In this document: positions 9,932 through 10,431 of the stretch, piece after piece
How positions within the stretch are numbered: the first letter of the stretch is position 1
How the letters are laid out: each line of letters begins with the position of its first letter
Source: Candidatus Babeliales bacterium
GTDB taxonomy: Bacteria; Babelota; Babeliae; Babelales; JBFXEV01
Length of the DNA: 64,000 bases
Assembly: GCA_050179755.1 (NCBI GenBank)
Contig: JBFXEV010000001.1
Location: 713,994 to 777,993, forward strand
Reading direction: 5' to 3'
The notes under the pieces: model-generated
Databases searched by the model: none
Told to the model about the DNA's origin: nothing
Seen by the model: only the letters and a program-made list of their open reading frames with translations
Made by a program: the position numbers and the translations under genes

Positions 9932-10357
9932 TTAAGATTGCACGGGAATAAATAGGCTGTTGCCACTCATACGCAGAATTGGTTGTAAATCAGGAAATTG
10001 TAAAATAGCTCCCGGCAGAACTTGTAGTTGGGCATTACCATTAAATGTGATATTGAGCCCAATTATCCAACGTGCCGATGTGCTAACAATAAAAGCGCCG
10101 CTAGTACTTGATGTCAAAGTAACAACATCGGTTTGCAGATCAAACCCTGGCCCTGCTTCAATGAGCAAGCACCCGATAGTATCGGTAATAACTATATCTT
10201 CATCAAGAATAATGGTACTGGTTTCATTAGGGCGAAATGGATTATCGCACGAATAGAGTTGATTAAATTCGCTTGCAGTTATAATAACACTAAGTGATTG
10301 GGTGCAATAAAGCGATAGTGCAATACATGTTGCACTCAAAAGGTAATTGTTCATCAT
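9932..10357 (-). CDS. Secreted small beta-rich hypothetical protein
   Basis: Signal peptide; ITFNGNAQLQVLPGAIL resembles beta-helix turns; first gene of a tight 3-gene operon. Confidence 0.7.
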   Translation of the reverse strand: MMNNYLLSATCIALSLYCTQSLSVIITASEFNQLYSCDNPFRPNETSTIILDEDIVITDTIGCLLIEAGPGFDLQTDVVTLTSSTSGAFIVSTSARWIIGLNITFNGNAQLQVLPGAILQFPDLQPILRMSGNSLFIPVQS

Positions 10358-10395
10358 ATGCTCTCTTTAAGTTATATATAAAATTTATATACAAC

Positions 10396-10431
10396 TTAAG
10401 TTCAGCAGATGATGAACAACTTGTCAAGCGC
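10396..10431 (-). promoter_or_regulatory. 36-bp promoter cassette, copy 1
   Basis: Minus strand TTGACA-17nt-TGAACT with extended TG; 35/36 identical to 15271-15306. Confidence 0.75.

Follow-up and report, generated by a model that had tools for sequence, protein, structure and literature searches.

Introduction

RNA that runs into the insertion sequences IS10 and IS50 from outside carries an inverted repeat that pairs with the translation start; transcripts of the element's own promoter, which start within the repeat, avoid this pairing. Fold-back inhibition in IS10 (Tn10) was reportedly described by Davis, Simons and Kleckner in 1985, and the protection of IS50 (Tn5) from outside promoters is said to have been reported by Krebs and Reznikoff in 1986 and by Schulz and Reznikoff in 1991. 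Here we describe an element on a cellular chromosome, at 10431-10333 on the minus strand of a 64,000-nucleotide (nt) window (the whole stretch of DNA that was analyzed), in which the spacer of a candidate promoter is complementary to the start codon region of the gene that follows it (9932-10357). The window comes from an uncultured, amoeba-associated bacterium of the order Babeliales (Dependentiae), whose genome (G000) is a single contig of 1,525,295 bases with 39% G+C and a completeness of 96%. The element was found three times: here (copy 1), again in the same genome at 15306-15218 on the minus strand (copy 2), and at the orthologous junction of G001, the only congener available for comparison (third copy). 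C1 denotes the contig in the coordinates of either genome.

Two further systems are relevant. For four genes of phage T4 (e, soc, 49 and I-TevI), the longer early transcripts fold so that the Shine-Dalgarno sequence and/or the AUG is buried, and good translation comes from RNA that begins at late promoters a short way upstream and is missing the 5' portion of the fold; relatives of this phage have the late promoter within the DNA that encodes the 5' strand (PMC3014915). At its left end, IS200 has a terminator that acts against impinging transcription, and a second inverted repeat keeps the Shine-Dalgarno sequence covered (PMC4513863).

We propose that the 90-nt element is a self-insulating operon start, a sigma-70-type promoter combined with an RNA hairpin whose 5' strand is the promoter spacer. 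From the sequence and the folding models, we put the probability of this reading at about 0.5. The structure, rarity, conservation and position of the element are shown.

Results

A candidate promoter spacer complementary to its own start codon

Read along the minus strand, the element and its upstream border consist of the following features.

10434-10432, minus strand: TAA stop codon of the upstream gene, 4 nt (GCGC) before TTGACA
10427-10422, minus strand: TTGACA, candidate -35 hexamer, identical in 3/3 copies
10422-10404, minus strand: outer 5' arm AAGTTGTTCATCATCTGCT, essentially the promoter spacer, complementary to the start-codon region
10421-10405, minus strand: 17-nt spacer between TTGACA and TGAACT, read from the sequence
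10407-10399, minus strand: TGC plus TGAACT, candidate extended -10 element, non-canonical (G at position 2), identical in 3/3 copies
10404-10399, minus strand: TGAACT, candidate -10 hexamer, read from the sequence
10399-10367, minus strand: inner AT-rich hairpin of 15 pairs with a 3-nt loop; its sequence differs among the copies, the hairpin is kept
10368-10361, minus strand: purine-rich, Shine-Dalgarno-like run AAAGAGAG, partly within the internal loop, facing GAAC
10362-10344, minus strand: outer 3' arm AGCATATGATGAACAATTA over ATG ATG AAC AA, with the start codons at 10357-10352

The original prediction, made from the letters of the stretch, had claimed that the spacer is complementary to its own gene's ATG region at 16 of 19 positions and that a further inner stem completes one long hairpin. 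Counted by hand, the outer arms form 16 Watson-Crick pairs and one G-U pair, with two mismatches, over 19 positions, and the inner stem joins 10399-10385 to 10381-10367 by 15 pairs, one of them G-U, so both claims are borne out, the second also by the RNA fold. The first ATG of the gene lies at 10357-10355, and the 11 nt of its start region, ATGATGAACAA, within the outer 3' arm, pair with the 17-nt spacer. In the predicted fold, GAAC of the candidate -10 hexamer is left unpaired in an internal loop. The start site, placed by prediction only at about 10392, falls inside the 5' arm of the inner hairpin.

The hairpin is exceptional for this genome. The segment 10440-10330 folds into one continuous hairpin of -42 kcal/mol (z -7.95), and none of 200 shuffles is as stable (mean -16.7, standard deviation 3.2). 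A repeat search sees it as 36-nt arms, 83% complementary and 1 nt apart. When all 1,525,295 bases were scanned for palindromes with 36-nt arms and loops of 0-8 nt, it came out best, with 30/36 positions complementary, and was the sole locus with at least 27/36; the runner-up has 26/36, and the maximum in the block-shuffled genome was 24/36. Folding 1340 crude gene starts from -80 to +25 puts this one in second place (-37.3 vs a mean of -15.3, standard deviation 5.6), behind a GC-rich stretch that is perhaps not a true gene. The duplex between spacer and own start reaches -19.2 kcal/mol in copy 1 and -23.1 kcal/mol in copy 2, values that 0/3000 spacer shuffles and 0/3000 shuffles, respectively, equal; both lie below every one of the 49 canonical TTGACA promoters of the genome that were tested (mean -4.9, minimum -14.6). 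Rfam has nothing for the element at or above the gathering threshold, only generic microRNA-precursor hairpin matches, of which the best scores 32.5 bits where the gathering score is 100. Finally, a look for sequencing runs that hold this part of the window gave three, all of them DNA runs of one study and none of RNA. Their contigs carry it without any difference, which argues against an assembly fold-back; those runs are possibly themselves the source of the assembly, and no variants were gained from them.

The element is a conserved island in three copies

Copy 2 is about 80% identical to copy 1 and lies on the same strand, and the congener copy is 79% identical. The following coordinates apply to copy 2.

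15306-15218, minus strand: copy 2, with TTGACA at 15302-15297, the spacer at 15296-15280 and TGAACT at 15279-15274

Four blocks are invariant in 3/3 copies: TTGACAA, TGCTGAACTTA (11/11), AGCA and ATGATGAACAA (11/11). TTGACA itself is invariant at 6/6 positions, and the spacer at only 11/17. The island of about 85 nt stands in DNA that is far less conserved: coding DNA flanking it in the two genomes is 65-70% identical, the two genes upstream of copies 1 and 2 are paralogs with 40% identical residues (56/139), and the signal-peptide codons just past AACAA cannot be aligned even between true orthologs. A covariance model built from the three copies matched 2 of the 151 genomes of the order, G000 being one. 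A degenerate exact pattern hit one record in genome_contigs, which is the congener, and none in metagenome_contigs. The possibility that the element is an integron attC site or a miniature inverted-repeat transposable element was rejected, as the sequence, read by eye, lacks the attC consensus and target duplications and has only two copies in the genome.

Each copy's predicted fold has the same architecture, with an outer stem formed by spacer and start codons, an internal loop in which GAAC faces the Shine-Dalgarno purines, and an inner AU hairpin. Several differences preserve pairing: C is replaced by U opposite G, and the C/U mismatch of copy 1 is U-A or C-G elsewhere. The outer stem of copy 2 has 19 pairs and one bulge, and an extra ATG lengthens it; two changes in the congener break stem pairs.

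In all three copies the sense strand folds better than the antisense strand (-34.6 vs -27.8, -35.1 vs -27.2 and -16.4 vs -11.7), a weak pointer, from modelling, to an RNA role on the coding strand. This bears on the possibility that the repeats act in the DNA, either as paired operator half-sites (TGTTCA/TGAACT/TGAACA), whose repressor would loop or cover the promoter, or as a supercoiling-sensitive cruciform. The original prediction had already named such an alternative, and GTTCA-N8-TGAAC does lie inside the promoter in copies 1 and 2, with a third TGAACA at the start codon and the inner palindrome placed where operators commonly sit. A DNA site, however, would not require the sense fold to be the better one in 3/3 copies, or the mismatches to be of the G-U type on that strand. 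Moreover, the arms are about 62, 58 and 63 bp apart in the three copies, so that no helical phase is kept, and the 5' half-site of the congener reads ACTCA. Cruciforms also form poorly from imperfect arms that contain indels and a 4x4 internal loop, and we consider it very unlikely that the repeats work at the DNA level. A LexA or Cheo-box reading of GAAC-N4-GTTG was rejected, the motif being present in copy 1 only.

Evidence for and against an internal promoter

By sequence, this genome uses promoters of the sigma-70 type. Intergenic DNA is enriched 2.6-fold in TTGACA (130/397 sites in 12.8% of the genome), 65 of the 85 TTGACA-N16-18-TAnnnT sites are intergenic, and the aligned intergenic TTGACA sites show a peak of A where a 17-18-nt spacer predicts it. 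Two sigma-70-family genes were found, both large and next to each other (C1:129805 and C1:131770), and a search of the genome gave no small sigma gene of the ECF type; an ECF-sigma reading of GAACTT was rejected, only the two large genes having been found. The TGC plus TGAACT of the element is one base off the TGG plus TAAACT of a neighboring canonical promoter.

Several observations weigh against a self-insulating operon start. Most concern the promoter. The consensus scan did not list TTGACA-17-TGAACT, because TGAACT fails the rule of A at position 2, and sigma-70 -10 hexamers almost always carry an A where this one has G. TGnTGAACT is not enriched in intergenic DNA (9/96 sites vs 12.8% expected), and the element's TTGACA lacks the canonical TAnnnT partner that 65 of the 130 intergenic TTGACA sites have. 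TTGACA-N17-TGAACT occurs at only two sites in G000, both being copies of the element. Others concern the RNA. The congener's outer stem is much weaker: its long RNA folds at -26.2 kcal/mol, compared with -42.7 for copy 1 and -50.6 for copy 2, and its spacer/own-start duplex reaches only -9.1 kcal/mol, which 130/3000 shuffles equal. RNAalifold on the three sequences gives 32 pairs, with changes on both sides in four, and its covariation term is +0.67, which from so few sequences amounts to no support by covariation. Sensitive blastn finds as other non-coding islands in the 14.5-kb region only canonical promoters of the form TTGCAT-18-TGnTAtACT, and these nearby paralogous promoters likewise keep their spacers, so that conservation of a spacer alone is no sign of structure. 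In addition, among 185 promoter-like sites at most 150 nt from gene starts, pairing with the own start is no better than with others (means -5.16 vs -4.98, p 0.58).

On the other side, TTGACA lies outside the conserved stem and GAAC in the loop, yet both are invariant. Structure alone cannot account for the conservation of TTGACA, which fits a promoter. The stability of the hairpin points the same way. The full hairpin is predicted at -43 kcal/mol at 25 C, -35 at 37 C and -31 at 42 C, too stable to open unaided, so an intact, conserved operon needs RNA without the 5' arm, made by an internal start or by a cut. RNase III, which could make such a cut, was not found: the genome, 96% complete, has no match to PF14622 or PF00636, which does not prove its absence. 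(An RNA thermometer was rejected, the stem still holding -31 kcal/mol at 42 C.) On the sequence, we think that TTGACA-17-TGAACT probably does act as a promoter, with some reservation.

The same stability could be taken to mean that there is no internal promoter and that all transcripts stay silent until an endonuclease cuts between the arms or a helicase or other factor opens the stem. The non-canonical -10 hexamer fits this, and dinQ offers a precedent, its primary transcript being inert until 44 nt are removed (PMC5066626). With RNase III, the usual enzyme for long duplexes, not found, and the fixed TTGACA outside the conserved stem left unexplained, we regard silencing until processing as quite improbable.

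The original prediction had interpreted the locus as a read-through insulator. Its structural half has gained support, the hairpin being exceptional and kept in 3/3 copies; its promoter half is weakened by a candidate -10 hexamer that is non-canonical and that the consensus scan missed. By sequence and folding models, the element is a strong candidate, conserved and duplicated, for a new instance of a known start-site occlusion design, with a real weakness at the -10 hexamer.

Predicted effect on the start codon

The original prediction had also suggested folding the long and the short transcript of the gene. In these predictions, the AUG is paired only in RNA begun upstream of TTGACA, in 3/3 copies: the pairing probability from the AUG to +10 is 0.99 in the long RNA vs 0.28 in the short one for copy 1, 0.90 vs 0.43 for copy 2, and 0.65 vs 0.31 for the congener. 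As in the occlusion of T4 e, soc, 49 and I-TevI, a helix is thus predicted to lie over the translation start, here the AUG.

From these data we infer promoter activity, a start site, translational occlusion, Rho polarity and leader coupling, in the following way. The candidate promoter would consist of TTGACA, the 17-nt spacer ending in TGC, and TGAACT. Read-through RNA, carrying both strands, would form a helix of about 33 pairs that hides the AUG and flanks the Shine-Dalgarno run, leaving the 141-amino-acid (aa) gene untranslated; such RNA may then be ended by Rho, which the genome encodes. RNA from the element's own promoter, with its start predicted at about 10392, would lack the 5' strand and leave the ribosome site open, keeping only an AU hairpin of 6-8 pairs at its very 5' end. 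Where the cassette was copied before a relocated Lnt-like gene, the hidden AUG would be that of a 16-codon leader open reading frame (ORF).

Read-through RNA is to be expected. The upstream stop codon lies 4, 40 and 4 nt before TTGACA in the three copies, and no terminator-like site is seen by sequence between the co-oriented upstream gene and the element in any of them; a co-oriented upstream gene without a canonical terminator should send transcripts into the element. Coupling through a ribosome that ends on the upstream gene was rejected, as the distance from the stop to the stem is 11 nt for two copies but 46 nt for the third.

With no other terminator in 3/3 copies, the hairpin could itself end or stabilize the upstream messenger, as a weak intrinsic terminator or an exonuclease-blocking 3' stem-loop, and its overlap with the start codon would be a by-product or a secondary feature. 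Transcription could still begin anew at an internal promoter. T-runs do follow the 3' arm (TTTT 3 nt on in copy 1, TTT in copy 2, and T6 about 9 nt on in the congener), and the IS200 left end has a terminator against impinging transcription (PMC4513863). However, the terminator scan has no match at the element. Canonical terminators of this genome are GC-rich stems with long T-rich runs directly after them, whereas the base of this stem is AT-rich and its T-runs are short (3-6), displaced by 3-9 nt and inside the coding region, so the element lacks the GC-rich stem with adjoining U-rich tract of an intrinsic terminator. A messenger end would also leave unexplained the fixed TTGACA and the exact match between 3' arm and start codon. 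We therefore hold it unlikely that the hairpin is there to finish the upstream messenger.

Gene context and the relocated Lnt-like gene

The genes around the two G000 copies are as follows.

10432-11097, minus strand: upstream co-oriented gene, a 221-aa ORF, secreted-looking and without a Pfam family (ORF and family search)
5684-10357, minus strand: downstream operon of 141-aa, 595-aa and 810-aa (esterase domain) genes, with a canonical terminator near 5690-5645
15237-15187, minus strand: leader ORF of 16 codons (MMMNNFYLMLLFGGIQ), starting in the 3' arm of copy 2
13826-15190, minus strand: membrane protein of 454 aa that resembles Lnt only in Atlas features and structure

Along the minus strand, the array runs from a terminator at about 12450-12410 and a promoter at about 12400-12360 through genes of 212, 197 and 221 aa to the element, and continues with the genes of 141, 595 and 810 aa, the terminator at about 5690-5645 and the next canonical promoter. 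Other junctions of the array have a GC-rich terminator followed by a canonical promoter, and the element is the sole signal within a stretch that without it would form one unit of six genes. Standing alone there, it should receive read-through as its expected state.

In copy 2, the 16-codon ORF opens in the arm ATGATGATGAACAAC, and its TGA shares bases with the start codon of the 454-aa gene (ATGA). Such overlaps are often associated with translational coupling, and by sequence the leader may be coupled to the gene behind it. A comparison of the leader with the 141-aa gene, of which it might be a remnant, found no homology beyond the 3' arm (161/2000 shuffles), in a test that has no power, true orthologs failing it too (1482/2000). 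The 454-aa protein has no Pfam, NCBIfam or PDB-sequence match. Atlas groups it with LNT_N and CN_hydrolase clusters (feature score 0.96, structure TM-score 0.78-0.85), which makes it, as a lead from modelling and not as an established name, a candidate for a very divergent apolipoprotein N-acyltransferase.

The two genomes differ in their gene order (window 5684-18380 in G000 vs G001:C1:533482-542585). The congener has an ankyrin-like gene, the element, the 141-aa, 595-aa and esterase genes and, after a 6-nt gap, a 462-aa gene, which is thus the fourth gene behind a single element; its 454-aa counterpart in G000 moved behind copy 2. There, about 3.5 kb of paralogous genes for small secreted proteins separate the two element-led units, and this 221/168-aa family was not found in G001 with the query used.

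Neither the 141-aa nor the 595-aa protein has a family match. Homologues of the 595-aa protein (8129-9916, minus strand), which matches no Pfam or NCBIfam family, occur in 25 of 41 searched Babeliales genomes, with G000 counted among them; G000 also has a second paralog, at C1:13444-15204. Where other families have a 595-aa homologue, it is preceded by a gene for a longer protein (about 270-450 aa) and not by one of the 141-aa type. As these operons begin with a different first gene, they provide no independent comparison of the element.

Wider occurrence in the genome

The 185 promoter-like sites have a modestly heavy tail, with 19 at an empirical rank of at most 0.05 vs about 9-12 expected. 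Pairing between spacer and own start is at most a minor tendency of the genome, and the element is its extreme case.

Two other loci, both outside the window, have pairings of this kind. At G000:C1:288435-289013 (minus strand), the spacer of TTGACA-16-TATACT is complementary to its own ATG region (-14.6 kcal/mol, the best of the 49 canonical promoters). At about 1429333-1429440 of C1 (minus strand), behind a tRNA gene, a perfect 12-pair outer stem connects the bases that follow the tRNA with codons 2-5 of a 200-aa gene; this hairpin, at about 1429340, has TATAAT in its loop and may follow the same occlusion logic.

The region also holds a second non-coding family, on the minus strand at 13281-13228, 12401-12353 and 5573-5542 of the window, with a further member at G001:C1:541712-541765. 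Its members are canonical promoters (TTGCAT/TTGCTT, an 18-nt spacer ending in TGn, and TAAACT/TATGCT/TATACT), precede the paralogous genes for small secreted proteins, and are 79-91% identical to the site just downstream of the congener's Lnt-like gene.

Discussion

If a self-insulating operon start is what this element is, it would clearly exemplify, in a cell, a design that has so far been described chiefly from phages and insertion sequences, in which a promoter shields its operon from incoming transcription by translational occlusion and not by a terminator. It would also illustrate how, by the copying of a compact regulatory cassette, a gene may retain its former control after relocation. 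We found no transcription start-site study for Dependentiae in the literature, and the locus offers a first testable candidate promoter and leader for this group. For annotators of co-oriented arrays, it is a reminder that adjacent genes need not be co-expressed.

We could speculate further, with considerable doubt, that a portable promoter-plus-occluder cassette replaces the terminator here and splits a co-oriented array into independently controlled units, in a reduced genome apparently without RNase III. When the Lnt-like gene left the operon, the cassette would have been copied along with it, together with the first codons of the old first gene, which now would serve as a 16-codon coupling leader that keeps the same control. 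On this reading, the weaker cases, the spacer at 288435-289013 and the hairpin at about 1429340, would make the design recurrent in Babeliales.

Among the systems compared, IS10 and IS50 guard a transposase from chance activation after insertion, whereas this element is fixed at an operon junction where read-through should be the normal state. It is not an insertion sequence and what it precedes is not a transposase: the genes downstream are the 141-aa, 595-aa and esterase-domain genes, and no IS10/IS50-type transposase, terminal repeats or target duplications were found at the element, whose three copies lie at fixed operon junctions in 2 of 151 genomes. With IS200 (PMC4513863), the element would share inverted repeats at the 5' end that act against incoming transcription and on ribosome access. 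However, IS200 has two separate hairpins, and the stem hiding the Shine-Dalgarno sequence is part of the messenger made from its own gene; here there would be one composite hairpin, which the corresponding messenger would lack. With the type I toxin gene dinQ, it would share a long 5' form that is inert and a short form that is active; according to PMC5066626, the short form of dinQ arises by RNA processing and the gene encodes a toxin, whereas here it would come from separate initiation and concern envelope or secreted-looking genes.

The likeness to T4 (PMC3014915) extends to a predicted helix present only in the longer RNA initiated upstream, a candidate promoter in or beside the 5' strand, whose own RNA would lack that strand and be translated, and a co-oriented array. 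In contrast to T4, the element lies on a cellular chromosome and not in a phage, the temporal early/late program belonging to T4; its candidate promoter is sigma-70-like, where T4 uses the late TATAAATA; and its predicted helix, with about 33 pairs in two stacked stems, is of much greater length, in a cassette that is duplicated in the genome. By this analogy, its use in a cellular operon would be an extension of a known design and not a new principle. What sets the locus apart is a cellular operon junction where read-through should be constitutive, an unusually long predicted helix whose 5' arm is the candidate promoter's spacer itself, and the duplication of the cassette together with the relocation of a gene.

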